Positions 10,472-62,986 of a stretch of DNA of 64,000 nucleotides are shown here, piece by piece. The position numbers and the translations under genes were made by a program. Below the pieces are notes generated by a model. It did no database searches, was not told where the DNA came from, and saw nothing but the letters and a program-made list of their open reading frames with translations. The first letter of the stretch is position 1. Every line of letters starts with the position of its first letter. This DNA comes from an uncultured bacterium (GTDB taxonomy: Bacteria > Fidelibacterota > UBA2242), in assembly GCA_964588795.1 (NCBI GenBank), contig CAZPQN010000009.1, positions 294-64,293 on the forward strand, in the 5' to 3' direction.

Positions 10472-10503
10472 TGCACCCGACCCAGCATCTAAAGGAGGAA
10501 AAT

Positions 10504-11818: not shown

Positions 11819-12865
<1,047 letters not shown>

Positions 12866-12872
12866 ACGCGAC

Positions 12873-14993: not shown

Positions 14994-15013
14994 TCCTGCT
15001 TTAGTTACCACAT

Positions 15014-15044
15014 CCCCGCCCAGTCACTACGGCGGGCTTATTTG
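15014..15044. terminator. Putative bidirectional Rho-independent terminator between the convergent GH57 and glnE-like genes
   Basis: CCCCGCC-cagtcactac-GGCGGGC hairpin followed by TTATTTG on the plus strand. Confidence 0.4.
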
Positions 15045-15053
15045 CCCGGGCGC

Positions 15054-38178: not shown

Positions 38179-39783
38179 TCAGCACTGGTTGAGCCATAGC
38201 GGATTGGTCAGGGCAAAATGACCGGTGCGGGTGTACAATTCCGCCCGCCAGTAACCTCTTGCGGGTACTTCGGCGAGGCCGATTTGGCGCTGAATACTCA
38301 ATGCCCCGCCCGGAAAGTCGAAAGTTTTATATTCCTGTTCGCGCCCCCGATCAACGTCACCGGCATAAATAATTAAGCGGCGCAGAGAACCAAAATGGTA
38401 ACTGGAACGGACATCCAATTTCAACAATCCGCCGGCGGAGCAATTCGCGTCAGCGGCTTTTTCCCAGTCGATAGCCAAAAAGGGGCCATTGGAAACCAGG
38501 CTGGGTGCGGACTTCAGGCTGTTGCTCAACTGCGTTACAGCGAGCGGACCGGCCACCTTGACGCCGGTGACGAATGCACCGCAGACCTGGTGATCGTGTT
38601 CATGCATTGACCAGAGTGGCACCTTTATCTGGCGGAAGCGGTTGAAATTGCCGTGGGCATCATTGCCGGCGAATATGCGCAGGCGCCGACCCGCCAGCAA
38701 ATGCTTGATCCAGTGCCGTTTGCCCGTCTCAAAATCGTCACCCGTGTGTCCGTTCAGGATCTGCCAGCCGCTCAGGTTGCGGTGCCAGTCGCAGGGGTTC
38801 CAGGTGTCGCGCCGGATGATCAGGCGGTGGCTGAAAACCGGGTGGGTAAAGGGATGCGTGGCAAAAGCCAGACTCGTTTCCGGAAGAAGGTCTAATATCC
38901 GGGCAAAATGCGACTCGGAGGCGTAACCGAGTGATTTTTCCAGCCCGTCGCCGGTGCCGGGGAAAAATTGCGCAGAATTGAGGACTGCCATATGCACGTT
39001 GCGTCCCAGGCCGTTGTCCACCGAGACTTCCTCGCCGGGAAGCAGGACGAAAGCCGGATTACTGCGATTGATTTCCTGCACCTCGGCCAAATAATCCTGC
39101 CACTTGTGGAGCTCGGGATCATTTGCAAACCAGGAATCCGGTTGGTCATCAAGATCATAGGAATGTTCAATCAGGGCTCCGAATGATAGACCCATGGGTT
39201 GCGCGAAAGCGGGGATGTAAGCCGCCGGCAACCCGAATTCCACGGCATCCGCGGTCCAGTGGGAATGCAGATGCAGGTCGCCCCAGTGCCAGCCGGGCGC
39301 CGCCGGACGAGGTTCGTCGTCAATAAAAGTCGTCAGGGGGCGGTGTGACAACGTCGCATAGTTATCGTTGTGCACCTGGAAAGCACGCCGCGCGGTACGC
39401 AGAAAAGCCCGACCGCAGACAGTGACTTGCTGTTGTTTCAGGTGCGCGACGGGCAGGTTGTATATTCTGACCAGCCATTTCTGATTGATGGTCAGGTTTT
39501 CCGGGAAGCAGAATTCCTGACGGTCAGCTTGGTCGAGTGTTTTGATGGTCAGGCAAACCTTTGCGAGCGTCACCGGGAACCAGTGTGCGTCTTTGATGAC
39601 GAGGGCGACCGGCAGATAGTCGGTTTCGACGCGCCGGGGTGCGTCGAAGACGATTTCGGGCTCTTTTTTGAAGAGTCGTCCACGCCAGAAACGGGTGCGC
39701 AGGTGCATCTCGGCGTACAGCCAGACAATCATCAGCGCCGCGATCCAGCCCGGCTCTATCGCTATCCCAACAGATACCTGCAT
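38179..39783 (-). CDS. Membrane-anchored PHP-domain protein (putative metal-dependent phosphoesterase, CehA/McbA-like)
   Basis: N-terminal hydrophobic anchor (GIAIEPGWIAALMIVWLY). GWHWGDLHLHSHWT is the DLHxHS PHP-domain metal-binding motif, with further His/Asp-rich segments (FATHPFTHP, GNDAHGNF). Confidence 0.45.
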   Translation of the reverse strand: MQVSVGIAIEPGWIAALMIVWLYAEMHLRTRFWRGRLFKKEPEIVFDAPRRVETDYLPVALVIKDAHWFPVTLAKVCLTIKTLDQADRQEFCFPENLTINQKWLVRIYNLPVAHLKQQQVTVCGRAFLRTARRAFQVHNDNYATLSHRPLTTFIDDEPRPAAPGWHWGDLHLHSHWTADAVEFGLPAAYIPAFAQPMGLSFGALIEHSYDLDDQPDSWFANDPELHKWQDYLAEVQEINRSNPAFVLLPGEEVSVDNGLGRNVHMAVLNSAQFFPGTGDGLEKSLGYASESHFARILDLLPETSLAFATHPFTHPVFSHRLIIRRDTWNPCDWHRNLSGWQILNGHTGDDFETGKRHWIKHLLAGRRLRIFAGNDAHGNFNRFRQIKVPLWSMHEHDHQVCGAFVTGVKVAGPLAVTQLSNSLKSAPSLVSNGPFLAIDWEKAADANCSAGGLLKLDVRSSYHFGSLRRLIIYAGDVDRGREQEYKTFDFPGGALSIQRQIGLAEVPARGYWRAELYTRTGHFALTNPLWLNQC

Positions 39784-39937
39784 TGGGCAAAATCTATCAT
39801 TTACCCGACCGAACTAACAAGATTTTTCGCAGTCGGTTTATGGCGTTTGGGGTTTAAAACGGGGAAAATTCGTTGACACTTAATTGCATTGCCCTTAAAT
39901 TCACCTGCATTTTTGTCTTTCGAAAGGAGTGAATTTT

Positions 39938-40498
39938 TTGGCAACGACAGCCGACATCCGCAATGGTCTGGTAATCAATTTCAATGGCGAATTGGCACGC
40001 GTCATAGAGTTTCAACATATCAAGCTGGGCAGAGGCGGCGCCCGCATCTGGACCAAATTTAAAAAAATCCGTACCGGACAGGTCATCGAAAATACCTACC
40101 GTTCGGGTGAAAAAATCGAGATTGTCCGTCTGGAAGCGCGGGAAATGCAGTACTTGTACCACGATGGTCATAATTACGTTTTGATGTCCCTGGAAAACTA
40201 CGAACAGATCGCCGTCCCGGGTGAGATATTTGAATCCGCTTCCCATTTTGCCAAGGAAAACGAAATCGTCAGGGTCCTGTTTCACGACGAAACGCCCATC
40301 GACGTCGAACTGCCACCTCATGTTAATTTAGTCGTAAAGTCCACCGAGCCGGGAATGCGCGGCGACACGGTCACGGGGGCCACCAAGCCCGCGGTGCTGG
40401 AAACCGGATTCACCGTGCAGGTACCATTATTTATCAATGAAGGGGATATTGTGCGGGTGGATACCCGTTCCGGCACCTACTGTGAGCGTGTTAAATAA
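39938..40498 (+). CDS. efp: Translation elongation factor P
   Basis: AAGGAG RBS about 9 nt upstream of a TTG start. (M)ATTADIRNGLVINFNGELARVIEFQHIKLGRGGARIWTKFKKIRTGQV aligns with the EF-P N-terminus, including the modified Lys loop (KLGRGGA). Confidence 0.9.
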   Translation: MATTADIRNGLVINFNGELARVIEFQHIKLGRGGARIWTKFKKIRTGQVIENTYRSGEKIEIVRLEAREMQYLYHDGHNYVLMSLENYEQIAVPGEIFESASHFAKENEIVRVLFHDETPIDVELPPHVNLVVKSTEPGMRGDTVTGATKPAVLETGFTVQVPLFINEGDIVRVDTRSGTYCERVK

Positions 40499-40511
40499 AC
40501 ACGGAGGGGTA

Positions 40512-40988
40512 ATGAGGTCAGAAAAAATTCTGGAATTGGTCAAAATTCTCGAGTCGCATAATGTAGACGAGATCGAGGTTTCGCGCTGGGGACAAAAAAT
40601 CCGCGTCGCCAAGAACGTCAGTCGCGGCGTCACGGAAATCGAAACCACATCCGAGACTCACAAGACCAAAAAGCCGCCGCACCACCAGCTGGCGGAGACG
40701 ATCCCGTTTGAACCCAAAGCGGCCGTGACGGAGGAGATCAATCACAATCAGGTCGAAGTCAAGTCGCCGATCGTCGGCACCTTTTACCGCGCGCCGGCGC
40801 CGGATGCCGAACCCTATGTCAAGGTCGGCAGTGCGGTGGCGGTCGGTCAGCCGCTGTGTATCATCGAAGCCATGAAGATTATGAACGTCATCGAAGCCGA
40901 AGTCGCAGGCAAAATTACCCAGATTCTGGTCGAGAACGCCCATTCCGTCGAATACAACCAGACGCTGTTCATCATCGAAAAATCCTGA
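40512..40988 (+). CDS. accB: Acetyl-CoA carboxylase biotin carboxyl carrier protein
   Basis: GGAGGGG RBS. C-terminal biotinyl domain with IIEAMKIMNVIEAE (EAMKM biotin-attachment motif). Ala/Pro-rich linker. Confidence 0.9.
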   Translation: MRSEKILELVKILESHNVDEIEVSRWGQKIRVAKNVSRGVTEIETTSETHKTKKPPHHQLAETIPFEPKAAVTEEINHNQVEVKSPIVGTFYRAPAPDAEPYVKVGSAVAVGQPLCIIEAMKIMNVIEAEVAGKITQILVENAHSVEYNQTLFIIEKS

Positions 40989-41013
40989 GAAGTAAGAAAG
41001 TCAGTCTGAACCA

Positions 41014-42363
41014 GTGATCAAAAAACTGCTGATCGCCAATCGCGGAGAAATTGCTTTAAGGGTCATCCGCGCCTGCAAGGAGCTCGGTATCGCCACCGTG
41101 GCCGTCTACTCGACCGCCGACAAACTTTCTCTGCACGTGCGTTTCGCCGACGAGGCGGTGTGCATCGGCCCGCCGGAAAGCAAGCACAGTTACCTCAAAA
41201 TGGCCCAGATCATCGGCGCCGCCGAAGTGACCAACGCCGACGCCATTCATCCCGGCTATGGCTTCTTGGCGGAGAATGCCGATTTTGCCCAGATGTGCGA
41301 GGATAATGAGATTCTTTTCATCGGCCCGAAACCGGCCGCGATCCGCACCATGGGCGATAAAGCCACCGCCCGGGAAACCGTCCGCAAAGCCGGCGTTCCG
41401 GTCATTCCCGGCTCTTCTACCACGGTGGACAACATCGAAACCGTAAAAAAAATCGCCGAACAGATCGGTTATCCGATCATCCTGAAAGCCACCGCCGGGG
41501 GTGGTGGACGGGGCATGCGCATTGTCCGGCAGATCGCCGAATTGGAAAATGCCTATGCGACCGCCCGGGAGGAAGCCCTCAAAGCCTTTGGTAACGCCGG
41601 GCTTTACGTCGAGAAATTGGTCGAGGATGCCCGTCACATTGAATTTCAGATTATCGGCGACAATTACGGCAACATCATCCATTTGGGCGAGCGTGAATGT
41701 TCCATTCAGCGTCGGCATCAGAAACTGATCGAGGAATCGCCCTCTCCCGCCCTGAACAATGAACTGCGGGAAAAAATGGGCCGGGTAGCGATCCGCGCGG
41801 CTAAGGCGGTCAACTACTCCAGCGCCGGAACCATCGAATTCCTATTCGACAACCGGCAGAATTTCTACTTCATGGAAATGAATACCCGCATCCAGGTCGA
41901 ACATCCAGTCACCGAGATGGTCACCGGCATTGACCTGCTGAAAGAGCAAATCCGCTTGGCGGATGGCGCCAAAATACCCAAATGGATGAAAAAGTTCAGC
42001 CTGCGCGGGCATGCCATTGAGTGCCGGCTGAATGCCGAGGATCCGACCCGCAATTTCCTGCCTGCTCCTGGACAGATTCAGGCCTTTCACGCCCCGGGTG
42101 GGCTGGGCGTCCGCATGGACACGCACGTTTATGCCGGTTATACTATCCCCCCCTACTACGATTCCCTGCTCGGCAAACTTATTACCCACGGTCGCGACCG
42201 CGCGGAAGCCCTGCAGAGGATGCAACGCGCTCTGGAAGAAACCATCATCGAAGGCATTCCGACCACCGTGGCCTTCCACCAGGCCATCTTAGCCGAAGAA
42301 GCCTTTCGGAGCGGCGCTTTCAATATCAATTTCTTAAACACATTCAATTTCAATAAAACTTAG
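41014..42363 (+). CDS. accC: Acetyl-CoA carboxylase biotin carboxylase subunit
   Basis: [39 protein letters not shown]-grasp region, ...[15 protein letters not shown]. Full-length BC. GTG start. Confidence 0.95.
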
Positions 42364-42375
42364 GAGGATGCTCTA

Positions 42376-42753
42376 ATGAACGTTCCTGGAAACCTGAAGT
42401 ATACCAACGACCATGAATGGGCGCTGATCGAAGGCCCCGAGGCGGTGATCGGAATAACTGATTACGCCCAGGGCCAACTGGGTGACGTGGTGTACGTTGA
42501 ACTGCCCCAGATTGGCAGTCGCGTCAACAAAGGCGAATCACTCGGAACGATCGAAGCCGTGAAGACTGTGGCGGATGTCTTTGCTCCGCTCAGCGGCGAG
42601 GTCATCGCCGTCAACGACGCTCTGAAAAATGCCGCCGAACTACTCAACAAGGCGCCCTACACTGACGGTTGGGTCGCTCGCCTGAAAATCAGCCATCCGG
42701 CTGAAGCGGAACAGTTACTGAGTCCGGACGACTATTCGAAATTAGTTGGATAG
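42376..42753 (+). CDS. gcvH: Glycine cleavage system H protein
   Basis: AGGAGG RBS. Lipoyl-lysine motif ESLGTIEAVKTVADVFAPLSGEV. 125 aa. Confidence 0.9.
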   Translation: MNVPGNLKYTNDHEWALIEGPEAVIGITDYAQGQLGDVVYVELPQIGSRVNKGESLGTIEAVKTVADVFAPLSGEVIAVNDALKNAAELLNKAPYTDGWVARLKISHPAEAEQLLSPDDYSKLVG

Positions 42754-42756
42754 ACT

Positions 42757-44097
42757 ATGCATTATATTCCGAACACCCGCGGTGTGGAACAAGAACTCCT
42801 GCGTTCCATCGGCGTGGAACGCTTCGAGGACCTGCTCGCCAACATACCGGACCAATTTTTAAAGCGCTGTCGGATTGACCTGCCTGCGCCGCTCTCTGAG
42901 CCGGAGCTGACGCGCCTGATGCACGATTTGGCGCGGAAAAACGCTCAGGCGGTGGATTACGTATCGTTTTTAGGCGGGGGAGCCTATGATCACTTCATTC
43001 CCGCCGTGGTGGATTTCCTGCTCGCCCGCTCCGAATTTTATACAGCCTACACCCCCTATCAGCCGGAAGTCAGTCAGGGCACCCTGCAATCCATTTATGA
43101 ATATCAATCCCTGATCTGCCATTTGATGGATCTGGAAGTGGCGAATGCCTCGCTATACGACGGAGCGACGGCCCTGGCGGAAGCCGCGATCATGACCGCC
43201 TCGATTACCCGTAAAAACAAATTTCTCGTTTCGCCGCTGATCAATCCGCAGATGTTAGCGGTACTGGAGACCTATCTGAAAACCCGCCGAATGACTTTCT
43301 CTTATCTGGCGGAAAAGAATGGCCTGACCGATTTCGGACAGCTGGCGGAGCAAATTGATGAACACACGGCGGGTGTTTTGGTTCAGTCGCCCAACTTTTT
43401 AGGGCTGATCGAAGACCTCTCCGGGGTGGCGGATAGCGTCCATGCCCGGCAGGCACTGCTGATCATGGCGGTTGACCCTATTGCCCTGGCTCTGCTTAAA
43501 ACTCCGGGCGAATGGGGCGCCGACATCGCCGTCGCCGAAGGTCAACCGCTTGGCCTCCACCAGTCCTGTGGGGGACCTTATCTGGGCGTTTTCGCCACGA
43601 AGCGTCAGTTCGTGCGCTCGATGCCCGGGCGGATCGTCGGACAAACCAGCGACCTTGACGGACGCCGCGGCTTTGTCCTGGTTCTGCAAACCCGCGAACA
43701 ACATATTCGCCGCGAGAAGGCGACTTCGAATATTTGCACAAATCAGGGGTTGATGGCCTTGGCGGCGACTATTTACCTGGCACTGATGGGTAAAAACGGT
43801 CTGCGGCACGCCGCTGAATTATGCCTGCAAAACAGCCACTATCTCGCGGAACAGATTGCCAAGTTACCCGGCTACGCCCTGCCTTACGGAGCGGTTCCGT
43901 ATTTCAAGGAGTTTGTCGTCACTACGCCTCGGCCTGCCGGAGAGATTATCCAAGCCGCGCGCACGGCCGGGTTCCTGGCCGGAATCGATTTGGGGCGCTA
44001 CCGCCCCACCTGGCAGGATCACCTGCTGATCGCGACGACGGAAAAGCGTACCCAGCGTGAAATGCATGATTTTGTAAAATTTTTGGCTAAATTTTGA
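42757..44097 (+). CDS. gcvPA: Glycine dehydrogenase (decarboxylating) subunit 1 (N-terminal half of split P-protein)
   Basis: 446 aa. MHYIPNTRGVEQELLRSIGVERFEDLL... matches the GcvPA family. No gcvPB or gcvT follows. Confidence 0.85.
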   Translation: MHYIPNTRGVEQELLRSIGVERFEDLLANIPDQFLKRCRIDLPAPLSEPELTRLMHDLARKNAQAVDYVSFLGGGAYDHFIPAVVDFLLARSEFYTAYTPYQPEVSQGTLQSIYEYQSLICHLMDLEVANASLYDGATALAEAAIMTASITRKNKFLVSPLINPQMLAVLETYLKTRRMTFSYLAEKNGLTDFGQLAEQIDEHTAGVLVQSPNFLGLIEDLSGVADSVHARQALLIMAVDPIALALLKTPGEWGADIAVAEGQPLGLHQSCGGPYLGVFATKRQFVRSMPGRIVGQTSDLDGRRGFVLVLQTREQHIRREKATSNICTNQGLMALAATIYLALMGKNGLRHAAELCLQNSHYLAEQIAKLPGYALPYGAVPYFKEFVVTTPRPAGEIIQAARTAGFLAGIDLGRYRPTWQDHLLIATTEKRTQREMHDFVKFLAKF

Positions 44098-44101
44098 CAT
44101 C

Positions 44102-44854
44102 ATGAGAATATTTACTGCATTACTGGAAAAAGCACGGCGCCGCGGGGGCGGTTATTTTATCCTCATTGATCCGGATACCCGTTCCCTGCCGGAATTACGG
44201 GATTTTGTCCGCTCAATCTGCGATGACGGAGTAGACGCTTTACTGGTCGGCGGCAGTCTGATCATCGGCTCCGATTTCCAGCAGGCTCTGGAAACGGTGC
44301 GCTCAGTCAGCACGGTTCCCGTCATCATTTTCCCGGGTTCGGTGGCGCAGGTTTCCAGTCAGGCAGATGCCGTCCTGTACATTTCCCTGATCAGCGGACG
44401 CAACCCCAATTACCTTTTCGGGGAACACGTCGTGGCGGCGCCGATCATCCACAAGTTAGGCATCGAACCGATCGCCACCGGTTACATGTTGTTCGAATCA
44501 GGGCGCACCACGACGGCGGAATTTATGAGCAACACCCGCCCCTTGCCGACCAACAAACCGGAAATCGCCATGGCCCATGCCTTAGCCGCGCAGTATATGG
44601 GGATGCAGACGGTCTATCTGGAAGCCGGGAGCGGCGCCGACCAGGCGGTGCCCGATTCGATCGTTAAGGCGGTCAGTAGTTACATCAACATTCCAGTCAT
44701 CGTAGGAGGCGGAATCCGGACACCGGAACAGGCGCACCAGAAAATTGCCGCTGGCGCGACATTTGTCGTCACTGGCAATGTTTTCGACGATGATAATCAA
44801 CTACGGCTGGTTGGTGAATTTGCCCGGGCAATACATACGCGTGAAAATGCCTGA
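44102..44854 (+). CDS. (Gera/hepta)prenylglyceryl phosphate synthase family protein (PcrB / GGGPS family)
   Basis: 250 aa TIM-barrel pattern typical of PcrB/GGGP synthase: GGGYFILIDPD..., DALLVGGS, ...VYLEAGSGA..., IPVIVGGGIRTPEQA. Phosphate-binding Gly-rich loops at the C-terminus. Confidence 0.65.
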   Translation: MRIFTALLEKARRRGGGYFILIDPDTRSLPELRDFVRSICDDGVDALLVGGSLIIGSDFQQALETVRSVSTVPVIIFPGSVAQVSSQADAVLYISLISGRNPNYLFGEHVVAAPIIHKLGIEPIATGYMLFESGRTTTAEFMSNTRPLPTNKPEIAMAHALAAQYMGMQTVYLEAGSGADQAVPDSIVKAVSSYINIPVIVGGGIRTPEQAHQKIAAGATFVVTGNVFDDDNQLRLVGEFARAIHTRENA

Positions 44855-45452
44855 AAAACGTCATCCGGAGCACCTTTTGCTACAGCAAATCATCACCCAG
44901 ATCGAGGAAAGCGCCGAGGTCAAGCGCCGCATGTTGACCACCTGTGCCGCGAGTATCCAGGAGGCGAGTGCAATTTTAATTGATGCAGTCCGCAAAGGGG
45001 GAAAAATCCTGCTGTGCGGCAATGGCGGCAGTGCCGCCGATGCCCAGCATTTAGCCGCCGAACTGGTTTCACGCCTGAAGCTGGAACGCCCTGCGATTGC
45101 GGCCCTGGCCCTGACGACCAATACCTCGATCCTCACCGCCATTGGCAATGATTACCAGTACGATTTGGTTTTTGTGCGGCAGGTTGAGGCGTTTGGCAAG
45201 TCCGGCGATGTACTGATCGGCATCAGCACCAGCGGCAATTCTCCCAACGTCATTCGCGCGATCGAGTACGCCAATATGGCCCAAATCAAGACGCTGGCCA
45301 TGACCGGAGAAACTGGCGGCAAATTAGCCGCAAAAGCCGGTCTGACAATCAGAATTCCCTCAACCAATGTCCAGCGCATTCAGGAAGCGCATATCACCGT
45401 CGGACACATTCTTTGCGACCTGCTCGAGTCCGCTTTGTACGGCAAAAGGTGA
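44847..45452 (+). CDS. gmhA: D-sedoheptulose-7-phosphate isomerase (SIS domain)
   Basis: KILLCGNGGSAADAQHLAAELV..., VLIGISTSGNSPNVIRAIEYA are GmhA/SIS motifs. The ATG overlaps the stop of the preceding gene by 8 nt. Confidence 0.85.
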   Translation: MPEKRHPEHLLLQQIITQIEESAEVKRRMLTTCAASIQEASAILIDAVRKGGKILLCGNGGSAADAQHLAAELVSRLKLERPAIAALALTTNTSILTAIGNDYQYDLVFVRQVEAFGKSGDVLIGISTSGNSPNVIRAIEYANMAQIKTLAMTGETGGKLAAKAGLTIRIPSTNVQRIQEAHITVGHILCDLLESALYGKR

Positions 45453-45467
45453 GATCAGTTGGTTTGA

Positions 45468-46358
45468 ATGCAGAACCTGGTCCAGGATTTTATCAATTAT
45501 CTACGCGTCGAAAGGCATCTATCCGTCAATACCATCCAGGCTTACCGCACCGACTTGGAACGCTACTGCCAGTTTTTAACCGAGAATCAGATTACCGATC
45601 CCTCCGCGATCCGATTCGGTAAGATTCAGGAATATATCAACGTCTTATCCGAGCTGGAACTGGCGCCAGCCAGCCTGGCGCGCAACTTCAGCTCAATCCG
45701 CGCCTTCCATGCCTTTCTGCTGGACGAAAATCTGACCAGTGAGGATCCGACAGTTTTACTGCAGTCGCCCCGCTTGCCACGTCGCCTGCCGCGGGTGCTG
45801 GAGGTAAACGAGATCGAAATGATTCTGGACAGCATTGACCATACGACCCAGAAAGGAATCCGTGACCGGGCGATTATCGAAACGCTTTACTCGACCGGCG
45901 TGCGGGTCTCGGAACTGATCAATTTAAAACTGAGCGACCTGTCTCTGCACCAAGGCATTCTGAGAGTTTACGGCAAAGGGCGCAAAGAACGCATCGTCCC
46001 TTTTGGAGAACGGGCGGCTCAGGAGGTCAAAACCTATCTGACCGCAGTCCGCGGCTTATTGATGCGCTATCAGAAGAGCCGTGACCATTTGTTCCTCAAC
46101 CTGCGCGGTGCGCCCTTGACCAGAATGGGCGTCTGGAAAATTATTCAGGAATATGTCCGCCTGGCTGACATCCGCAAACCGATCAGCCCGCACGTCTTTC
46201 GCCACTCGTTTGCCACGCATCTCCTGGAAGGAGGTGCCAACCTGCGGGCCGTGCAGGAAATGCTGGGACATGCCAATATCGCCACCACGCAGATCTACAC
46301 GCATTTAGACCACGCCTACCTGATCGAACAGCATCGCACATTTCACCCGAGGTATTGA
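45468..46358 (+). CDS. xerD: Tyrosine recombinase XerD/XerC (chromosome dimer resolution)
   Basis: N-terminal SAM-like domain. C-terminal catalytic RHSFATHLLEGGANLRAVQEMLGHANIATTQIYTHL (R..H..R..Y tetrad). Housekeeping context with no phage or IS genes around. Confidence 0.9.
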   Translation: MQNLVQDFINYLRVERHLSVNTIQAYRTDLERYCQFLTENQITDPSAIRFGKIQEYINVLSELELAPASLARNFSSIRAFHAFLLDENLTSEDPTVLLQSPRLPRRLPRVLEVNEIEMILDSIDHTTQKGIRDRAIIETLYSTGVRVSELINLKLSDLSLHQGILRVYGKGRKERIVPFGERAAQEVKTYLTAVRGLLMRYQKSRDHLFLNLRGAPLTRMGVWKIIQEYVRLADIRKPISPHVFRHSFATHLLEGGANLRAVQEMLGHANIATTQIYTHLDHAYLIEQHRTFHPRY

Positions 46359-46993
46359 TGAACCTGCAAACGATCGTTCTGTTACTTCCCCCGATTCTGC
46401 TCGCGTTGACTTTTCATGAATTCATGCACGGCTGGTCGGCCAATCGTCTGGGCGATCCAACCGCCAAACTTGCCGGCCGGCTGACCATGAATCCATTGGC
46501 CCATCTTGACCCGTTCGGGACGCTGATGCTGTTTCTGGTGCGCTTTGGTTGGGCGCGTCCCGTGCCGGTGGATGTGAGCTATTTCCGCAATCCCAAACGC
46601 GACCTTTTGATCGTATCACTCGCCGGCCCGTTAGCTAACCTGTTCCTGGCCGGGTTGAGCGGATTGCTGATCCGGGGTTTTCATGCCGGACTGTTTACCT
46701 GGCTTCCGGGCATCGCTCTGGAGCCGCTTTATCTAATGGTATTACTGAGCCTGCAGATCAATCTCGCCTTGGCGATCTTTAACCTGATCCCGATTCCGCC
46801 GTTAGACGGATCCAAGATCCTGTTCGGACTGTTGCCCGATCGATATGAACACCAAGCACTGTGGTTGGAGCAGTACGGCGGTTATATCCTGATGGGTTTA
46901 ATCCTGTTCGGAATGCTGACCCATGTCTCAATTTTAGGTTTGCTGATCAATCCATTTGTCAGATTTTTCACACATCTGTTGGGAGGTATCTGA
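46355..46993 (+). CDS. Site-2 protease family (peptidase M50) membrane metalloprotease
   Basis: HEFMHGWSANRLGD (HExxH in a TM helix), ...MNPLAHLDPFGT..., multiple TM segments, LDGSKILFGLL (second-site motif). Overlaps the xerD stop by 4 nt. Confidence 0.8.
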   Translation: MMNLQTIVLLLPPILLALTFHEFMHGWSANRLGDPTAKLAGRLTMNPLAHLDPFGTLMLFLVRFGWARPVPVDVSYFRNPKRDLLIVSLAGPLANLFLAGLSGLLIRGFHAGLFTWLPGIALEPLYLMVLLSLQINLALAIFNLIPIPPLDGSKILFGLLPDRYEHQALWLEQYGGYILMGLILFGMLTHVSILGLLINPFVRFFTHLLGGI

Positions 46994-47178
46994 TGGTAAA
47001 ATGGCAACCCCGCCGGTTTTCTATCACCGACAAGCTGGAAGAGCGTCGGGATGGCAAAATTCACTTTGCACGCTTAAGAAGCAATGCGCGACGCGCAGTC
47101 AGCCGTCCGCTATGGTGGACCATATTTCTGATTGTGGTCGTGCTGATTATCTACTTTTACCTGCGCCACTTAGGATGA
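46993..47178 (+). CDS. Small (61 aa) C-terminally anchored membrane protein, translationally coupled to the M50 protease gene
   Basis: GGGAGG RBS 6 nt upstream. The ATG overlaps the M50 stop (TGATGG). Product MVKWQPRRFSITDKLEERRDGKIHFARLRSNARRAVSRPLWWTIFLIVVVLIIYFYLRHLG has a basic N-terminal half and a single C-terminal TM helix. Confidence 0.4.
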   Translation: MVKWQPRRFSITDKLEERRDGKIHFARLRSNARRAVSRPLWWTIFLIVVVLIIYFYLRHLG

Positions 47179-47274
47179 CCCACGCAAGGCAATCATTCGG
47201 AGAAGTGATGCAGGTTCAGCCGCCAAATGTTGAGCGGATGGGGAGAATTTTTACCCAAAATCAGGGAGCAAAAC

Positions 47275-48954
47275 ATGCCGGAAATCATTGAGTGTGTCCC
47301 CAATTTCAGCGAGGGACGCGATCTTAACCTGATCAAAGCCATCACGGCCGCGATCCAGTCCGTAGAAGGCGTCAAACTGCTGGACGTTGATCCGGGTGCC
47401 GACACGAATCGGACGGTGGTTACGTTCGTCGGTTCACGTCAGGGAATCCTGGCGGCGGCGTTTGCGGGCATCGCCAAGGCGGCGGAACTGATTGACATGC
47501 GCCAGCATCACGGTGCTCACCCGCGCCTTGGAGCGACGGATGTTTGTCCGCTCGTTCCGGTCTCCGGCATCAGTGAAGAGGAATGCGTCCGGCTGTCGCA
47601 CGAGCTCGCCCGGCGCGTCGCCGAAGAACTGCACATTCCGGTTTATCTTTACGAAAAATCCGCGCGGTCGCCCGAGCGCGCCAACCTGGCCAACATCCGG
47701 CAGGGTGAATACGAGGGTCTGCCCGCCAAACTCGCCGACCCGCAATGGGCTCCGGATTACGGCGCCGCCGTTTTTAACCCTAAGTCCGGAGCAACGGTCA
47801 TCGGCGTGCGGAAATTTCTAATTGCCTACAACGTCAACCTGAACACCCGCGACCGCAAATTGGCCAATGACATCGCTCTGACCATTCGTGAGAAAGGTCG
47901 CCTGCGGCGCGATGCCGCCGGCGGCATCCTGCGCGATGAAGCGGGTGAGGCACTTTACGAACCCGGGATTTTCAAAGCCACCAAAGCCGTCGGCTGGTAT
48001 CTCGATAAATACAGGATGGCACAGGTTTCCATCAATCTCACGGATTACGAGATTACGCCTCTGCACAGCGTCTTCGAGGAAATCAGAAAATTAGCCGGAG
48101 CGCGCGGTCTGCGGGTCACCGGCTCGGAACTGGTTGGCCTGATCCCGCGGCAAGCCCTGTTGATGGCAGGTCGTTATTATCTGCGGCGGCAGGGTAAATC
48201 GGAAGGCGTTCCGGAAAAAGAACTCGTACGTCTCGCCGCCCAATCCCTGGGCTTGAGTGAAATTGCACCTTTCGATCCATCGAAAAAAATCATCGAGTAC
48301 CAGTTCGGTGAATTCGAACATCCCCTCACCGACCTGAGCGTACGCGACTTCAGCGACGAGCTGTCCAGCGATTCGCCCGCTCCCGGCGGCGGCAGTGTCG
48401 CCGCCCTGTGCGGCGCGCTCGCCGCGGCCTTGACCGCCATGGTTGCCAATCTGACCGTCGGTAAAAAAGGTTATGAACGCCATTTCCGGCGCCTGAGTGA
48501 CGTCGCGGTCAGGGCGCAGGCATTGAAAGACGAATTCCTGCTCGACATTGATCGCGACACCGCCGCGTTCAATGCGGTCATGGACTGCCTGCGTCTGCCC
48601 CGCAAGACGGAGGCCGAGAAAGTCCAGCGTCTGCAAGCCATCCAACAAGCCACCAAGCGGGCAACCGAAGTGCCTTTTAAGGTGCTGGAGTCGGTGCAAC
48701 AGTTGCTGGATCTGACGCTCCAGGTCGCGCGTTTTGGGAATATCAATTCCATCAGCGATGCCGGGGTCGCCGCTCTGACCGCCGAGACTGCGCTCCGGGC
48801 GGCGCGTTTTAACGTGCTCATCAACCTGCCGGGCACCGGTGACGCCCCTTATGCCGCGCTCAAGCGTGAGCAGGTAGACGCTCTTCAGCATCTCGCCCAA
48901 CGCAAGGTACGCCGCATCCTGCGTCTGGTCGAAAAACAAATTTTATCCGTCTGA
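47275..48954 (+). CDS. ftcD: Bifunctional glutamate formimidoyltransferase / formimidoyltetrahydrofolate cyclodeaminase
   Basis: N-terminal MPEIIECVPNFSEGRDLNLIKAI (formiminotransferase domain). C-terminal cyclodeaminase domain with SPAPGGGSVAALCGALAAAL. Confidence 0.85.
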   Translation: MPEIIECVPNFSEGRDLNLIKAITAAIQSVEGVKLLDVDPGADTNRTVVTFVGSRQGILAAAFAGIAKAAELIDMRQHHGAHPRLGATDVCPLVPVSGISEEECVRLSHELARRVAEELHIPVYLYEKSARSPERANLANIRQGEYEGLPAKLADPQWAPDYGAAVFNPKSGATVIGVRKFLIAYNVNLNTRDRKLANDIALTIREKGRLRRDAAGGILRDEAGEALYEPGIFKATKAVGWYLDKYRMAQVSINLTDYEITPLHSVFEEIRKLAGARGLRVTGSELVGLIPRQALLMAGRYYLRRQGKSEGVPEKELVRLAAQSLGLSEIAPFDPSKKIIEYQFGEFEHPLTDLSVRDFSDELSSDSPAPGGGSVAALCGALAAALTAMVANLTVGKKGYERHFRRLSDVAVRAQALKDEFLLDIDRDTAAFNAVMDCLRLPRKTEAEKVQRLQAIQQATKRATEVPFKVLESVQQLLDLTLQVARFGNINSISDAGVAALTAETALRAARFNVLINLPGTGDAPYAALKREQVDALQHLAQRKVRRILRLVEKQILSV

Positions 48955-48963
48955 CAGGTGGGC

Positions 48964-50784
48964 ATGTCCAAAATTCGCATCCTGTCTGAGCAACTCACTA
49001 ATAAAATCGCCGCCGGCGAGGTGGTGCAACGCCCGGCTTCCTTGGTCAAGGAACTGGTCGAAAACAGTTTAGATGCCGGAGCGACGGCAATCACGATTAA
49101 CATCCGCAACGGAGGCAAAACGCTGTGCGAAGTCAGCGACAATGGCGAAGGCATGTCTCGCGATGATCTCCTGCTGGCTTTTGAACGTTACGCCACCAGC
49201 AAAATCAGCACGGTGGAAGACCTGCTCAATATCCGGACGCTTGGATTCCGAGGCGAAGCCCTGGCCAGCATCGCGGCGGTCGCCGTCGTAGAGGCCACTT
49301 CAACCCTACCCGGCGCCGACTCCGGACACACCCTGCGCATCGAAGGCGGCAGTTTTCGCTACATCCAGCCGGCCGCCCCGCAACCCGGTACCACCATCTC
49401 CGCCCGCAATTTGTTCTATAACATTCCCGCGCGCCGCAAATTTTTAAAAAGCGCTGAAGTAGAATACCGCCACGTTTTCGAAGTTGTTCAGAAATTTGCC
49501 CTGAGTCGACCGCTGGTCCAGTTTCAGTTAATCCATAACGAGCAGGAAGTCATGCGCTTGGAACCCCAGCCTCTGCCCGAGCGCATTGCCGAACTGTTCA
49601 GCTCTGAATATGCCACCAATCTCCTGGCTGTCACCCACGGTTCCGCCGACTTGCAGATCAGGGGCTATATCGGTAATCTGAACTTAGTCCGGGCGCGGCG
49701 CGGCGAGCAGTTTCTGTTTGTCAACCAGCGTTTTGTTACCGATCGTCTGTTGAATCACGCCATCGTTAGCGCGTATGGCAGTCTGTTATCGCGCAATGAA
49801 TATCCGTTTTACTGCTTAGAATTAGAGCTCGATCCCCTCGCGGTGGACGTCAATGTTCATCCCACCAAAATGGAGGTCAAATTCCGCGAACAGGAACAGA
49901 TTTATCAGTTCTGTCAGGAAGCCGTTAAAAACAGCCTGCAGGGTATTCTGGCGGTCATTCCGGATTTAGGCATTTTTAGGCCGGAGTACTACTATACTCC
50001 ACCGCCGCCGCCTGCCTCGGGAGTGCCGGTCGAACAGCTGACCCTGACACCTCCTGCAGCGATAATAACCCCGGAAAAAAGGATCCGGCGCATCGCCTCC
50101 CCTCAGAAAACCGATGACGTCGCACCTTCCGAGTCGACTGAAAGCACTTCCAAATGGCAGGAACGTGCACGCCGTTTCAGCGGACAAAATCTACCCGCCG
50201 ACTCCATCGAGCGGCATCCCGGCGCCCAGGTTTTTCAATTACATAACAAGTACATTCTCAGCCAGATTAAATCGGGGCTGGTGGTCATTGACCAGCACGT
50301 AGCCCATGAACGCATCCTGTACGAGGAAGCCCTCGAATCCCTGCAACATACCAGTTGGCGTGCCCAGCAACTGCTTTTTCCGGTGATCCTGGAATTGACT
50401 CCTACCGATTTTTCGGTGCTTTTGGAAATTTTACCGTTTCTCGAAAAACTCGGCTTCCGCATGAAAGAATTCGGCAAACAGACCGTCGCCATCGAAGCGG
50501 TTCCGGCCGGCATGCGCTGGGGAAATGAAAAGACCATCATCAAGGAAATTCTCGATTATTACCAGGAATACGGTACAAAGGATACCAGCCGGCAGGAAAA
50601 AGTCGCCGCGGCCTATGCCTGCAAAGCCGCCATCAAGTCCGGCGACTCCCTGACTACCGAAGAAATGCAGACGCTGGTCGATCATCTCTTCGCCACTCAG
50701 AATCCCTATCACTGTCCGCACGGACGACCGATCATCGTCAATCTTTCCCTGAAGGAATTAGACAAACGTTTTGAACGGATCTGA
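48964..50784 (+). CDS. mutL: DNA mismatch repair protein MutL
   Basis: GHKL ATPase motifs (IAAGEVVQRPASLVKELVENSLDAGA...DNGEGM, GFRGEALASI). C-terminal dimerisation domain. 606 aa. Confidence 0.9.
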   Translation: MSKIRILSEQLTNKIAAGEVVQRPASLVKELVENSLDAGATAITINIRNGGKTLCEVSDNGEGMSRDDLLLAFERYATSKISTVEDLLNIRTLGFRGEALASIAAVAVVEATSTLPGADSGHTLRIEGGSFRYIQPAAPQPGTTISARNLFYNIPARRKFLKSAEVEYRHVFEVVQKFALSRPLVQFQLIHNEQEVMRLEPQPLPERIAELFSSEYATNLLAVTHGSADLQIRGYIGNLNLVRARRGEQFLFVNQRFVTDRLLNHAIVSAYGSLLSRNEYPFYCLELELDPLAVDVNVHPTKMEVKFREQEQIYQFCQEAVKNSLQGILAVIPDLGIFRPEYYYTPPPPPASGVPVEQLTLTPPAAIITPEKRIRRIASPQKTDDVAPSESTESTSKWQERARRFSGQNLPADSIERHPGAQVFQLHNKYILSQIKSGLVVIDQHVAHERILYEEALESLQHTSWRAQQLLFPVILELTPTDFSVLLEILPFLEKLGFRMKEFGKQTVAIEAVPAGMRWGNEKTIIKEILDYYQEYGTKDTSRQEKVAAAYACKAAIKSGDSLTTEEMQTLVDHLFATQNPYHCPHGRPIIVNLSLKELDKRFERI

Positions 50785-51718
50785 GCCAGGCCTGCCGATC
50801 ATCTTTCTGCTCGGCCCGACGGCGGTCGGCAAAACTCTGACTGCTATCGAATTGGCCCGGATGATCAACGCCGAAATCATCTCCCTGGATTCGCGTCAGG
50901 TCTATCGCGGGTTGGACATCGGCACCGCCAAACCGACCCTGCGGCAACGCCGAGACGTTCCCCATCATTTAGTCGACATCCTGACGCTCGACGAAGACAT
51001 TAGCGCCGGACGCTATCGCGAGCTGGCGCTGGCGGCCATCGCCGCGACCCGCTCCCGCGGCCATCACCCCCTGTTTGTCGGCGGCAGTGGCCTGTATGCC
51101 AATGCCCTCATTAAAGGTTTATTCGAGTCCAGCCAGACTGACCCGGGTATCCGGCGCCAGTTGCACCTGGAATTGCAGACCAAAGGCAGTACGGCACTTT
51201 ACAATCGCCTCCTGGAAATCGATCCGGCGACCGCCCTCAAGACCCATCTTAACGACCACAAACGCATCACCCGTGCTCTCGAAATCTATGCCATCACCGG
51301 CCAGCCACCCAGCCAGCACTACCGTCGCCAAAACACACCCTTGCCTTTTCCCTATCAAGTTTTTATCCTGAACATGCCGCGCGAAGAACTCTATCGCCGG
51401 ATTGATCAGCGTGTGCAAAACATGCTGAGCGAGGGTTTGGTCGAGGAGGTCCGGCGTTTGATTGCGGCTGGCGGGCGAGCGCGACTGGAACAGCTGCTGA
51501 CCCTTGGTTATCAGGAAGTCCTGCATTTCCTAGATGGACACTGTACCGAAGAAGAAATGGGCCTTAACATTCAGCGCAATACACGGCGCTATGCCAAGCG
51601 GCAGCTGACCTGGTTCCGCAATCAGTATCCGGAAGCCGTTTGGGTGGAGGTCGCTCCCGACCAATCTCCGCACGCAGTAGCAGAGATTATCAGAAATTCT
51701 CTGACTAAAATTAATTGA
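50771..51718 (+). CDS. miaA: tRNA dimethylallyltransferase
   Basis: P-loop IIFLLGPTAVGKT..., DSRQVYRGLDIGTAKPT, typical MiaA length. The start overlaps the mutL end. Confidence 0.9.
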   Translation: MNGSEPGLPIIFLLGPTAVGKTLTAIELARMINAEIISLDSRQVYRGLDIGTAKPTLRQRRDVPHHLVDILTLDEDISAGRYRELALAAIAATRSRGHHPLFVGGSGLYANALIKGLFESSQTDPGIRRQLHLELQTKGSTALYNRLLEIDPATALKTHLNDHKRITRALEIYAITGQPPSQHYRRQNTPLPFPYQVFILNMPREELYRRIDQRVQNMLSEGLVEEVRRLIAAGGRARLEQLLTLGYQEVLHFLDGHCTEEEMGLNIQRNTRRYAKRQLTWFRNQYPEAVWVEVAPDQSPHAVAEIIRNSLTKIN

Positions 51719-52415: not shown

Positions 52416-53648
52416 TTAGCCGAAATTATCATAAAGGATATTTTCGGATTCCACTCCTAAATCTTCCAACATGTGGATCACGGCGCTGTTCATCAGCGGC
52501 GGCCCACAGATGTAATACTCGCAGTCTTCCGGTGCCGGATGGTTCAGCAGATAATTATTCAGGACGACGTTATGGATGAAACCGCAATGGCCTTGCCAGT
52601 TATCTTCCGGCAACGGAGCGGAGAGGGCGACATGCCAGTGGAAATTCGGAAATTCCCGCTGTAATTGGTCGAAGTCGTCCTGATAAAACACTTCTTTCAG
52701 GCTACGCGCTCCATACCAGAAAGAAATGCGCCGGTCGGTGCGCAGTCTTTTCAACTGGTCGAAAATGTGTGAGCGCATCGGAGCCATGCCGGCCCCGCCA
52801 CCGATGAAGATCATTTCGCGGTCGGTCTGCCGGGCGAAAAATTCCCCGTATGGACCGGAAATCGTGACCCTGTCACCCGACTGAAGACTGAAAAGATAGG
52901 AAGACATTTTGCCCGGCGGCACATTCGGATGATCGGGCGGCGGGGAGGCGATCCGGATATTCAGCATGATGATTCCTTTTTCTTCCGGATAATTCGCCAT
53001 CGAATAGGCGCGCACCACCTCCTCGTCCACTTTTGACACGTAACGCCACAGGTCATAGCGCTCCCAGTCGCTTCGGTACTCGTCTTCAATCACAAAATCC
53101 TTATAGGCCACGCGGTGCGGGCCGACTTCGATCTGAATATAGCCGCCGGCCCGGAAATCCACGCTTTCACCGGCTGGTAATTCCAATACCAGTTCTTTGA
53201 TAAAAGTGGCGACGTTGCGGTTGGAGCGCACGGTGCAAACCCATTTGCGGATGGCAAAAACCTCGGGAGGAATCGCCAGTTGCAGGTCGCCCTTGACTGC
53301 CAGCTGGCAGGCTAACCGATAACCTTCCCGGGCTTGCCGGCGATTGATATGCGCGGTTTCGGTGGGGAGCAGACTTCCGCCTCCAGCAACCACCCTGACC
53401 CGGCACATGCCGCATGTGCCGCCACCGCCGCACGCGGAAGCGAGGTAGATCTGCCGCCCGGCCAACGTGTTAAGCAGTTTCTCGCCCAGTGGCGTCTCGA
53501 AAGTATATTGCGGATCGTTGTTGATACTGATCTGGGCCTGACCGGTCGGGATTAACTTCGATTTCGCCCAGAGAATCAGCAGTACCAAGCTGAGCACCAC
53601 GAACGTAAACATGCCGACCGCCAGTAAAATCAAACCAGGTGCGCTCAT
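52416..53648 (-). CDS. nqrF: Na+-translocating NADH:quinone oxidoreductase subunit F (2Fe-2S ferredoxin + FAD/NADH domains)
   Basis: N-terminal TM anchor, plant-type 2Fe-2S cluster ([17 protein letters not shown] ... CQ), FAD/NAD reductase motifs (RAYSMANYP..., [15 protein letters not shown]). Confidence 0.9.
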
Positions 53649-53661
53649 GTATTTATCCCGG

Positions 53662-54273: not shown

Positions 54274-54276
54274 TTT

Positions 54277-58246: not shown

Positions 58247-58277
58247 TAATGCGTTGAAAAATGGCCGCAACAAACGA

Positions 58278-62917: not shown

Positions 62918-62986
62918 TTTGTATGCTGTTCGATGCGGGTAAGTAATTAAATTTCCAGCAGATTTCAAATAAAAAGGATAACGGGC

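Follow-up and report, generated by a model that had tools for sequence, protein, structure and literature searches.

The open reading frame at positions 44102 to 44854 (forward strand) of the 64-kb stretch of DNA that was analyzed (the window) encodes a 250-residue geranylgeranylglyceryl-phosphate synthase (GGGPS) that belongs to group II, in the bacterial subgroup IIb of the FCB clade, and is not a PcrB of the Bacillus type. It is a native gene of a Marinimicrobia (Fidelibacterota) population genome. We consider it highly probable that the locus as a whole is explained by a native group II GGGPS gene of the FCB type that has been inherited as a pair with the downstream gene gmhA. On the archaeal side of the "lipid divide," the committed step is that catalyzed by GGGPS, and the window protein is a genuine and apparently active bacterial copy of this archaeal-type enzyme, which forms the first ether linkage in isoprenoid glycerol lipids.

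The reading frame extends from an ATG to a TGA codon exactly at these coordinates and was assigned on the basis of Pfam and NCBIfam profiles, sequence matches in the PDB, an AF2 model, and functional residues. The Pfam PcrB family (PF01884) matched residues 18 to 233 (E = 5e-42; 144.3 bits for a cutoff of 23.9), and the scores exceeded the cutoffs of the NCBIfam subfamily NF003198 (280.7 versus 247 bits) and of the GGGP equivalog TIGR01769 (205.9 versus 161.55 bits). These matches are far beyond chance. Two archaeal equivalogs of narrower scope, NF003202 and NF003201, scored below their cutoffs, and a GGGPS tree located the protein within the bacterial clade, apart from the archaeal enzymes (bootstrap of 99). 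The best PDB matches were 4mm1 (1.3e-46) and 4jej (2.3e-46), with E values of 1e-46 to 3e-39 for group II chains versus 4e-8 to 2e-6 for group I chains. The AF2 model (pLDDT of 89.5) superimposed on group II GGGPS with a TM score of 0.9 and an rmsd of 1.6 Å, and Foldseek gave TM scores of 0.85 to 0.91 for group II versus 0.71 to 0.81 for PcrB, AfGGGPS, and MoeO5, on the group I side. A preliminary description of the locus had recognized a GGGPS/PcrB pattern and called for placement of the protein in group I or II. That family call was correct, as was the accompanying summary of the literature on GGGPS and PcrB, and it is sharpened here to group II (IIb), by PDB E values and Foldseek TM scores, in place of a PcrB-type heptaprenyl enzyme.

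These data bear on two other identities. An enzyme of group Ib, in other words a heptaprenylglyceryl-phosphate synthase of the PcrB type that produces a C35 mono-ether like its counterparts in Bacillales, would share the Pfam family PF01884 and the housekeeping-gene surroundings, as for pcrB in Bacillus. However, the HepGPS equivalog NF003197 scored only 32.3 bits for a cutoff of 260, PcrB structures were matched with E values of ~1e-7 versus 1e-46 for group II GGGPS, the fold-search TM scores were 0.72 to 0.77 for PcrB versus 0.9 for group II, and the residue at the limiter position is a Val, as in the C20-specific enzyme of Methanothermobacter thermautotrophicus (MtGGGPS). Sequence comparisons and the structural model therefore make a PcrB-type identity very unlikely. 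Confusion with another phosphate-binding TIM-barrel enzyme (IGPS/TrpC, HisA/HisF, TrpA, or ThiG) might have been suggested by weak C-terminal matches (E values of 1e-7 to 1e-3) to His_biosynth, Trp_syntA, ThiG, and others. All of these matches fell under the Pfam and NCBIfam cutoffs and were confined to residues ~175 to 233, corresponding to the common phosphate-binding β7-β8 segment, whereas the full-length matches were to GGGPS and the TM score of TrpA was 0.56 to 0.58. Pfam, NCBIfam, PDB, and fold searches thus refuted this identity, including the closer match to IGPS/TrpC that the preliminary description had named as grounds for abandoning its assignment, and it is extremely improbable.

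No variation was seen at Y128, Y172, E174, S177, G178, and G203/G204, and almost none at T224, among 48 closely related homologues and 55 diverse sequences. In characterized enzymes, the residues corresponding to Y128, Y172, and E174 form the triad responsible for G1P stereospecificity and catalysis, and T224 corresponds to the group II Thr of loop β-α-8 (PMC9385802). The Tyr/Tyr/Glu triad, the standard phosphate-binding loops, and the group II Thr are all present in the window protein. V84 aligns with V86 of MtGGGPS, a position at which relatives have V, I, or L; the chain length of the products of group II enzymes is limited by a small aliphatic residue on helix α-3′ (V86 in Mt and I90 in Fj), leading to C20 specificity (PMC9385802). 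F141 aligns with the anchor residue W141 of MtGGGPS; an aromatic anchor at the ring interface (W141 in Mt) and its cationic partner typify hexameric group II GGGPS (PMC7888582). The protein is a soluble (β-α)8-barrel prenyltransferase that, by analogy with the characterized relatives, would catalyze the Mg2+-dependent ionization of geranylgeranyl diphosphate, followed by attack of the carbocation by the C3 hydroxyl of sn-glycerol-1-phosphate to give 3-O-geranylgeranyl-sn-glyceryl-1-phosphate. V84, as the small aliphatic limiter, would set C20 specificity, and a hexameric form is predicted from the aromatic anchor F141. Group II enzymes from Bacteroidetes and Cloacimonetes form GGGP from G1P in vitro (PMC7852524).

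The GGGPS gene is located in a co-directional, tightly packed housekeeping array defined by open reading frames and Pfam matches, efp-accB-accC-gcvH-gcvPA-GGGPS-gmhA-xerD-M50 protease-FTCD-mutL-miaA (positions 39929 to 51718, forward strand). As the preliminary description had indicated, GGGPS directly follows gcvH (42376 to 42753, forward strand; Pfam GCV_H) and gcvPA (42757 to 44097, forward strand; Pfam GDC-P; NCBIfam GcvPA NF001696, 605 bits), the latter ending 4 nt upstream of the GGGPS start codon. The nearest homologues, together with 20-odd syntenic loci, carry the labels "Ca. Marinimicrobia," Neomarinimicrobiota, or Fidelibacterota. The part of the array from efp to the M50 protease gene forms a core that recurs in Marinimicrobia loci in which the identity of GGGPS ranges from 56 to 100%; FTCD, mutL, and miaA are absent from the most divergent of these loci, and single genes are missing in a few others. 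Among the loci compared, gcvH and gcvPA were found upstream of GGGPS in Marinimicrobia only. The G+C content near GGGPS (0.544) matches that of the window (0.51 to 0.57), and there is therefore no sign of a recent island. A sigma-70-like site (TTGACA-17-TAAATT, positions 39873 to 39901, forward strand) upstream of efp is the sole 10-of-12 consensus match at the head of the array and constitutes weak evidence. Counts of promoter- and terminator-like sites obtained by consensus scanning of the region were not above those of shuffled sequence, and the scan therefore does not define an operon. A conserved 534-residue open reading frame on the reverse strand (positions 38179 to 39783) had no Pfam or PDB match. 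The window also encodes LptD, TonB-dependent receptors, and T9SS sorting domains, the host being a diderm bacterium.

The gene downstream of GGGPS (44847 to 45452, forward strand) encodes a GmhA-like sedoheptulose-7-phosphate isomerase with an SIS domain, of 201 residues if translated from the ATG at 44847 or 191 residues if translated from the TTG at 44877. It matched Pfam SIS_2 (3e-31) and, in the PDB, GmhA 2xbl (E = 1.8e-52), the type of the best match being phosphoheptose isomerase. The best NCBIfam models were those of gmhA, just under cutoff (205.4 versus 209.45 for TIGR00441 and 220.7 versus 276 for another model), and the DiaA model scored lower (154.8 for a cutoff of 352). The His, Glu, Gln, and His residues of zinc binding and catalysis are kept together with the STSG loop, and all are invariant in 38 GGGPS-linked homologues. 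The 8-nt overlap with gmhA noted in the preliminary description, ATGCCTGA (44847 to 44854, forward strand), was read from the sequence and contains the GGGPS stop codon (44852 to 44854). It exists if gmhA starts at the ATG and is replaced by a 22-nt gap if gmhA starts at the TTG; public gene calls on identical DNA are split between the two starts (ATG in L004 and TTG in L001 to L003).

In 41 of the ~60 distinct loci compared, gmhA lies directly downstream of GGGPS and in the same orientation. The pair was found in Marinimicrobia, Calditrichota, Ignavibacteria, Kryptonia, and KSB1, with spacers of −11 to +32 nt and outer flanks that vary between lineages; it is broken in a Melioribacteraceae subclade and in loci L022 and L030. 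Cloacimonadota and Poribacteria have a polyprenyl synthase-UbiA-GGGPS operon in place of the pair. The GGGPS and GmhA trees (neighbor joining, weakly supported) recover the same lineage groupings, both splitting off Marinimicrobia (bootstraps of 69 and 77) and Kryptonia (100 and 100). This pattern fits co-inheritance of the two genes since before the split of the five lineages, with alaS-GGGPS-gmhA as the probable ancestral string. The operonic coupling with gmhA put forward in the preliminary description is therefore real and spans about four to five phylum-level FCB lineages, more than could have been known at the time. The envelope-lipid role deduced from it is not proven, since alaS, a functionally unrelated gene, is kept upstream of GGGPS almost as widely as gmhA is downstream.

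Selection for co-expression could have preserved the pairing if both enzymes fed a single envelope product, such as a heptose-bearing isoprenoid glyceryl-phosphate glycolipid or anchor, or if LPS-core heptose and ether lipid syntheses were co-regulated. The persistence of the pair despite reshuffled outer flanks, the very short or overlapping spacers, the co-inheritance of the two genes, and the conservation of all catalytic residues of GmhA argue for such a module. There is also a precedent in moenomycin biosynthesis, in which the GGGPS-fold enzyme MoeO5 joins a prenyl group through an ether bond to a three-carbon phosphate acceptor, which later bears sugars, thereby making the lipid-phosphoglycerate anchor of a glycolipid. 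Products of the GGGPS family serve as carrier lipids in the case of PcrB (PMC12345273). Against the module, no GGGPS-GmhA fusion was detected among 150 family representatives, the long members of which were fusions with ACPS, deaminase, or DAO or had unannotated extensions, and the pair has no other heptose-pathway gene or glycosyltransferase gene as a conserved neighbor. GGGPS enzymes with and without gmhA linkage do not differ in their G1P-binding residues, which makes a different acceptor for the linked enzymes unlikely, and this idea was rejected. The adjacency of alaS is about as broad as that of gmhA in spite of having no plausible functional link, which weakens a functional reading of the gmhA linkage, and the close spacing is not specific to the pair since all genes from efp to miaA are tightly packed. 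A literature search connecting gmhA or heptose with GGGPS or PcrB retrieved no relevant paper. A role of GmhA as the source of G1P was rejected on chemical grounds, as we infer that a ketose-aldose isomerase cannot reduce DHAP. On balance, a functional GGGPS-GmhA module appears unlikely, and its more specific version, an undescribed heptose-linked isoprenoid glyceryl-phosphate carrier or anchor in the envelopes of Marinimicrobia, Calditrichota, Ignavibacteria, Kryptonia, and KSB1, is more doubtful still. The linkage may instead reflect inherited gene order without a common function.

The window contains no gene for DGGGPS, GGPP synthase, geranylgeranyl reductase, CarS, or G1PDH, and pathway-partner genes were likewise not found in the syntenic Marinimicrobia loci. 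A Marinimicrobia MAG containing GGGPS and a DGGGPS candidate has been reported (PMC6431249, supplement). Searches with a Cloacimonadota UbiA query and with a profile built from 14 DGGGPS sequences gave no Marinimicrobia-labeled match among the 120 matches listed per search, which were from Cloacimonadota and archaea or from Marinilabiliaceae and other Bacteroidales and none of which lay on a contig equal in length to those bearing the Marinimicrobia GGGPS; the diether branch thus rests on that one published MAG. The GGGPS product could have two fates. In the first, a DGGGPS homologue of the UbiA family, with its gene elsewhere in the genome, would add another prenyl group before activation of the CdsA type, and we tentatively propose archaeal-like diether phospholipids as a possible outcome. 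The second, proposed with similar reserve, would be a low-abundance mono-ether lipid that serves the envelope as a carrier or anchor, by analogy with the PcrB product of Bacillus, an acetyl carrier lipid (PMC12345273).

FCB phyla that have GGGPS, including Marinimicrobia, generally lack G1PDH (PMC6431249), and the in vivo acceptor could therefore be G3P or could come from another route. The preliminary description had regarded the absence of G1PDH from the genome as a refutation of the GGGPS assignment. This argument is invalid, because the lack of G1PDH is general in the GGGPS-bearing FCB phyla (PMC6431249) and Cloacimonetes GGGPS enzymes are active even though a genomic G1PDH is lacking (PMC7852524). 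For FCB bacteria without G1PDH, a catabolic or salvage function has been raised (PMC6431249), according to which GGGPS would act on environmental archaeal lipids or isoprenoid glycerol ethers and not participate in membrane synthesis. The lack of a reported G1PDH in the phylum and of pathway partners within the 64-kb window would agree with salvage, but the gene lies within a constitutive housekeeping array and not in a catabolic cluster, its sequence is strongly conserved over hundreds of Marinimicrobia variants, related enzymes are biosynthetically active (PMC7852524), and the reverse of a diphosphate-releasing prenyl transfer should be energetically unfavorable. A catabolic or salvage function is accordingly very improbable.

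The presence of GGGPS in "Ca. Marinimicrobia" was already listed (PMC6431249). Since the occurrence of GGGPS and a DGGGPS-like gene without G1PDH in this phylum is on record, the core finding amounts to known biology; the novelty of the gene itself is low, and nothing is added to the catalogue of carriers. The sole new point is that, in several related phyla, GGGPS is co-inherited with gmhA, a gene for heptose synthesis. The comparison is modestly useful in that FCB GGGPS loci fall into two types of context, a biosynthetic operon with polyprenyl synthase and UbiA prenyltransferase genes (Cloacimonadota and Poribacteria) and a housekeeping alaS/gcvPA-GGGPS-gmhA string (Marinimicrobia and allies). 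In the second type, the enzyme may yield a minor lipid of the envelope, expressed together with heptose synthesis, and not a bulk diether lipid. If the heptose-lipid module were true, the "archaeal" enzyme of these FCB bacteria would gain a defined role other than bulk membrane synthesis, distinct from the diether pathway of the Cloacimonadota and Poribacteria operon.

Among known systems, MoeO5 (3vk5) has a GGGPS-like fold (TM score of 0.81) but only 18% identity with the window protein, uses 3-phosphoglycerate as the acceptor and farnesyl diphosphate as the donor, and is encoded in an antibiotic gene cluster, in contrast to the housekeeping locus of the window GGGPS. PcrB from Bacillus is a homologous TIM barrel that also prenylates G1P and is encoded among housekeeping genes, and its product is a minor lipid carrying acetyl groups for lipoprotein N-acetylation (PMC12345273). 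It belongs to a different subgroup (Ib), with ~20% identity (E value of ~1e-7), and owes its C35 specificity to a different limiter position, in helix α-4a (PMC9385802). The archaeal group IIa enzyme of M. thermautotrophicus (4mm1) gave the best match both by sequence (E = 1.3e-46) and by structure (TM score of 0.90) and has the same limiter Val, an aromatic anchor, and the same Tyr/Tyr/Glu triad. Unlike in M. thermautotrophicus, the window gene is hosted by a diderm bacterium, with no G1PDH, DGGGPS, or CarS gene nearby, and the product of the enzyme is not expected to be a bulk membrane lipid. The bacterial group IIb enzymes, represented by fjGGGPS of Flavobacterium johnsoniae (4jej) and the GGGPS of "Ca. 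Cloacimonetes" (Villanueva et al. 2021), share the family, fold, catalytic residues, and bacterial clade of the window protein. The synthesis of GGGP from G1P was demonstrated for these relatives (PMC7852524), whereas it is predicted from the sequence for the window protein. fjGGGPS is a dimer with an Arg at the anchor position, which is occupied by Phe141 in the window protein, as in hexameric enzymes. The gene contexts also differ, namely, GGGPS-pnuC-arfB in Flavobacteria-like loci and polyprenyl synthase-UbiA-GGGPS-CpsB in Cloacimonadota versus gcvPA-GGGPS-gmhA in the window.

The open reading frame at positions 44102 to 44854 (+ strand; 250 residues, ATG start) encodes a group II geranylgeranylglyceryl-phosphate synthase (GGGPS) and not a PcrB-type enzyme. 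Pfam searches returned PF01884 (PcrB/GGGPS; E = 5e-42) for residues 18 to 233, whereas matches to His_biosynth, TrpA, ThiG, IMPDH, and other TIM-barrel families were confined to the shared C-terminal phosphate-binding segment and scored under the cutoffs, except for His_biosynth, which was narrowly above (29.4 versus 23.6 bits). In NCBIfam, the protein passed the cutoffs of the GGGPS/HepGPS subfamily NF003198 (280.7 versus 247) and of the GGGP equivalog TIGR01769 (205.9 versus 161.55) and scored 32 against a cutoff of 260 for the heptaprenyl (PcrB) equivalog NF003197. The best match among PDB sequences was the group II enzyme of Methanothermobacter thermautotrophicus (4mm1; 1.3e-46), and the group II enzymes of Flavobacterium johnsoniae (4jej) and Thermoplasma (6jo3 and 6nke) matched at 2.3e-46 and ~1e-39, respectively. 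Group I structures (PcrB from Bacillus, Geobacillus, and Staphylococcus; GGGPS from Archaeoglobus) gave just 4e-8 to 2e-6. An AlphaFold2 model obtained from 48 homologues (pLDDT 89.5; pTM 0.90) matched group II GGGPS with TM scores of 0.85 to 0.91 (rmsd ~1.6 Å), in comparison to 0.71 to 0.81 for PcrB, AfGGGPS, and MoeO5 and 0.56 to 0.58 for TrpA. Since sequence and structure matches both favored group II GGGPS, and since other barrels were matched only partially, an IGPS/TrpC-like identity was rejected, as was a PcrB-type enzyme. Thus, the PcrB/GGGPS family assignment of the preliminary description, including the coordinates of the gene, was confirmed, and the assignment was narrowed to group II.

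G1P (sn-glycerol-1-phosphate) stereospecificity and catalysis are set by a Tyr/Tyr/Glu triad; further determinants are the standard phosphate-binding loops, which include one Thr characteristic of group II, and a small aliphatic residue that limits chain length, V86 in M. thermautotrophicus and I90 in F. johnsoniae (review of archaeal lipid enzymes, PMC9385802). An aromatic anchor (W141 in M. thermautotrophicus) marks hexamers, this position being occupied by Arg in the dimeric enzymes of Flavobacteriales (PMC7888582). In the alignment to 4mm1, the limiter corresponds to V84 and the anchor to F141. Y128, Y172-L-E174, S177/G178, G203/G204, and T224 were also present, and these last residues showed little or no variation across 48 close homologues and across a set of 55 diverse sequences from bacteria and archaea. 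Together, the residues suggest that the enzyme is specific for G1P and for C20 chains and that it is probably hexameric. By reference to characterized relatives, it would catalyze an Mg2+-dependent geranylgeranylation of G1P at the C3 hydroxyl, with GGPP as the donor.

The identical protein was present on ENA and JGI metagenome contigs. The names Candidatus Marinimicrobia, Neomarinimicrobiota, or Fidelibacterota, which denote an FCB-group phylum, are attached to its closest homologues (56 to 78% identity) and to ~20 genome loci with synteny to the window. LptD, TonB-dependent receptors, and T9SS sorting domains, which are hallmarks of diderm and FCB bacteria, are also encoded in the window. 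Coleman et al. (2019) found orthologues of GGGPS and of the second prenyltransferase, DGGGPS, in 12 of 12 FCB phyla surveyed, Ca. Marinimicrobia among them, with GGGPS OIO64010.1 and DGGGPS candidate OIO65800.1 in a Marinimicrobia MAG of the supplement (PMC6431249). The window therefore holds a known enzyme family, correctly called, in a phylum already reported to have it. In our protein searches, no Marinimicrobia-labelled DGGGPS appeared among the matches listed. A missing G1P dehydrogenase, which the preliminary description regarded as refuting, cannot refute GGGPS identity, since FCB carriers of GGGPS, Marinimicrobia among them, generally lack that enzyme (PMC6431249). Villanueva et al. 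showed in vitro formation of GGGP from G1P by group II enzymes of Bacteroidetes and Cloacimonetes, the latter being active although their genomes have no G1P dehydrogenase (PMC7852524).

GGGPS directly follows gcvH (42376 to 42753, +) and gcvPA (42757 to 44097, +; NCBIfam GcvPA match of 605 bits), as initially described, and starts 4 nt past the gcvPA stop codon. On its 3' side, the ATG of the SIS-domain gene gmhA (44847) overlaps the GGGPS stop codon (44852 to 44854) within ATGCCTGA. Public gene calls on identical DNA place the gmhA start at this ATG (201 residues) or, in three of the loci, at TTG 44877 (191 residues), so that the reported 8-nt overlap holds for the former start and becomes a 22-nt gap with the latter. 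The G+C content near GGGPS is the same as in the remaining window. GGGPS stands where gcvPB would follow gcvH-gcvPA, and neither gcvPB nor gcvT was present among the window ORFs scanned, indicating that the genes of the glycine-cleavage system are not all together in this genome.

Comparison of window proteins with 64 loci (tblastn) revealed that the array efp-accB-accC-gcvH-gcvPA-GGGPS-gmhA-xerD-M50 is kept through Marinimicrobia (GGGPS identity of 56 to 100%), often continued by FTCD-mutL-miaA. Outside this phylum, the upstream genes change and gmhA is still directly 3' of GGGPS on the same strand. The pair was present in 41 of ~60 distinct loci with sufficient downstream sequence, including 10/10 Kryptonia-type loci, eight loci of Ignavibacteria and Melioribacteraceae, Calditrichota (L026, L027, and L032), KSB1 (L035), locus L024, and a contig of unassigned lineage (L068). 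It was absent from three Cloacimonadota loci, one Poribacteria locus, a Flavobacteria-like locus (GGGPS-pnuC-arfB), an archaeon locus, a Melioribacteraceae subclade (tex-GGGPS-aconitase), and a few single loci. The spacer was −11 to +32 nt in every lineage except the most divergent Marinimicrobia lineage (L008/L009:10751-11037; GGGPS 56% identical), in which it was 278 nt. In simple neighbor-joining trees, the deep nodes of which were weakly supported, bacterial GGGPS formed one clade (bootstrap 99), within which gmhA-linked lineages clustered weakly, with unlinked Cloacimonadota, Poribacteria, and F. johnsoniae branching outside. The GmhA tree gave the same lineage groups (bootstraps of 77 for Marinimicrobia and 100 for Kryptonia), which fits vertical inheritance of the two genes together. 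In 19 loci, distributed over Kryptonia, Ignavibacteria, Calditrichota, and unassigned lineages (for example, L069:2237-5771 and Kryptonia loci L043 to L052), the gene immediately 5' of GGGPS is alaS, so that the ancestral string was likely alaS-GGGPS-gmhA.

The best PDB matches of GmhA were phosphoheptose isomerases (Burkholderia pseudomallei 2xbl; 1.8e-52), with a weaker match to DiaA (3e-42). Mutant structures among these matches (E68Q and Q175E) point to a functional Glu and Gln. The window protein retains His and Glu in AADAQHLAAELVSR, Gln and two His in RIQEAHITVGH, and the STSG phosphate loop; these residues were invariant in 38/38 GGGPS-linked GmhA proteins examined. In 13 of the 38, including the window protein, the conserved segment LTTDTSILTAIGND has Asn in place of its Asp. 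The gmhA equivalogs were the top NCBIfam matches, just under cutoffs (205.4 versus 209.45), and with this reservation we treated GmhA as predicted to be catalytically competent.

The preliminary description took the coupling to gmhA as a hint of an envelope-lipid role. The pairing is conserved, but it does not establish that role, since alaS, another conserved neighbor of GGGPS, is clearly unrelated in function. Other observations also make a direct biochemical link between GGGPS and heptose improbable: no GmhA-GGGPS fusion was found among 150 family representatives, no other heptose gene or glycosyltransferase was conserved next to the pair in the loci compared, G1P-binding residues were the same in gmhA-linked and unlinked GGGPS, close spacing is shared by all window genes from efp to miaA, and our literature search found no paper linking gmhA with GGGPS.

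Elsewhere in the window, a 534-residue ORF (38179 to 39783, −) adjoins efp throughout Marinimicrobia (43 to 51% identity in relatives) and had no match in Pfam or PDB sequences; its GDLHLHSHW motif may resemble those of PHP-type metal-dependent phosphoesterases. Patatin-like phospholipase, POTRA, and Omp85 domains are combined in an 810-residue protein (23752 to 26184, +), an outer-membrane lipase architecture. The − strand from 52416 to 58324 carries a complete operon of NqrA-F-like genes for a Na+-translocating NADH:quinone oxidoreductase, and the segment from 61409 to 63502 encodes a cob(I)alamin adenosyltransferase along with a RACo-type corrinoid activase.

Among long GGGPS-family representatives, two independent proteins (P0141, 446 residues; P0250, 426 residues) are apparent fusions to ACPS (4'-phosphopantetheinyl transferase), and apparent fusions to a cytidine-deaminase-like domain (P0253) and a DAO domain (P0203) were also seen. 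A Flavobacteria-like locus has a separate ACPS gene (L065:3941-4573) 1.4 kb 5' of GGGPS.

Two fates of the GGGPS product appear about equally likely. A distal UbiA homologue would add a second prenyl group, followed by bacterial CDP-activation to form diether phospholipids, as in the "mixed membrane" model proposed by Villanueva et al. Alternatively, a minor mono-ether lipid may act as a carrier or anchor, for which Bacillus offers a precedent, since Ac-HepG, made there by PcrB/YvoF, ferries the acetyl groups used in lipoprotein N-acetylation (PMC12345273). The additions made here are the synteny across phyla of GGGPS with gmhA, and of alaS with GGGPS, and the division of FCB GGGPS loci into two contexts; they yield a testable hypothesis and would not surprise specialists. 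In Cloacimonadota (L057:~7000-15500; L058:464-6925; L059), polyprenyl synthase and UbiA prenyltransferase genes precede GGGPS, and the Poribacteria locus (L054) likewise has a UbiA gene close upstream, these UbiA proteins being apparently DGGGPS-like. On the 3' side, Cloacimonadota carry genes for a CpsB/CapC-type PHP phosphatase, an NAD-epimerase, a methyltransferase, an LPG_synthase_TM protein, and a MoxR AAA ATPase. Later pathway steps may be carried out by the phosphatase and by the flippase-like membrane protein. A contig of unassigned lineage (L072:1110-5735) has a geranylgeranyl reductase gene (GGR_cat) between alaS and GGGPS. In contrast to the Marinimicrobia-type locus, which has no ether-lipid partners near GGGPS in the window or in syntenic loci, the Cloacimonadota and Poribacteria loci, with UbiA beside GGGPS, and the L072 locus look like dedicated ether-lipid operons.
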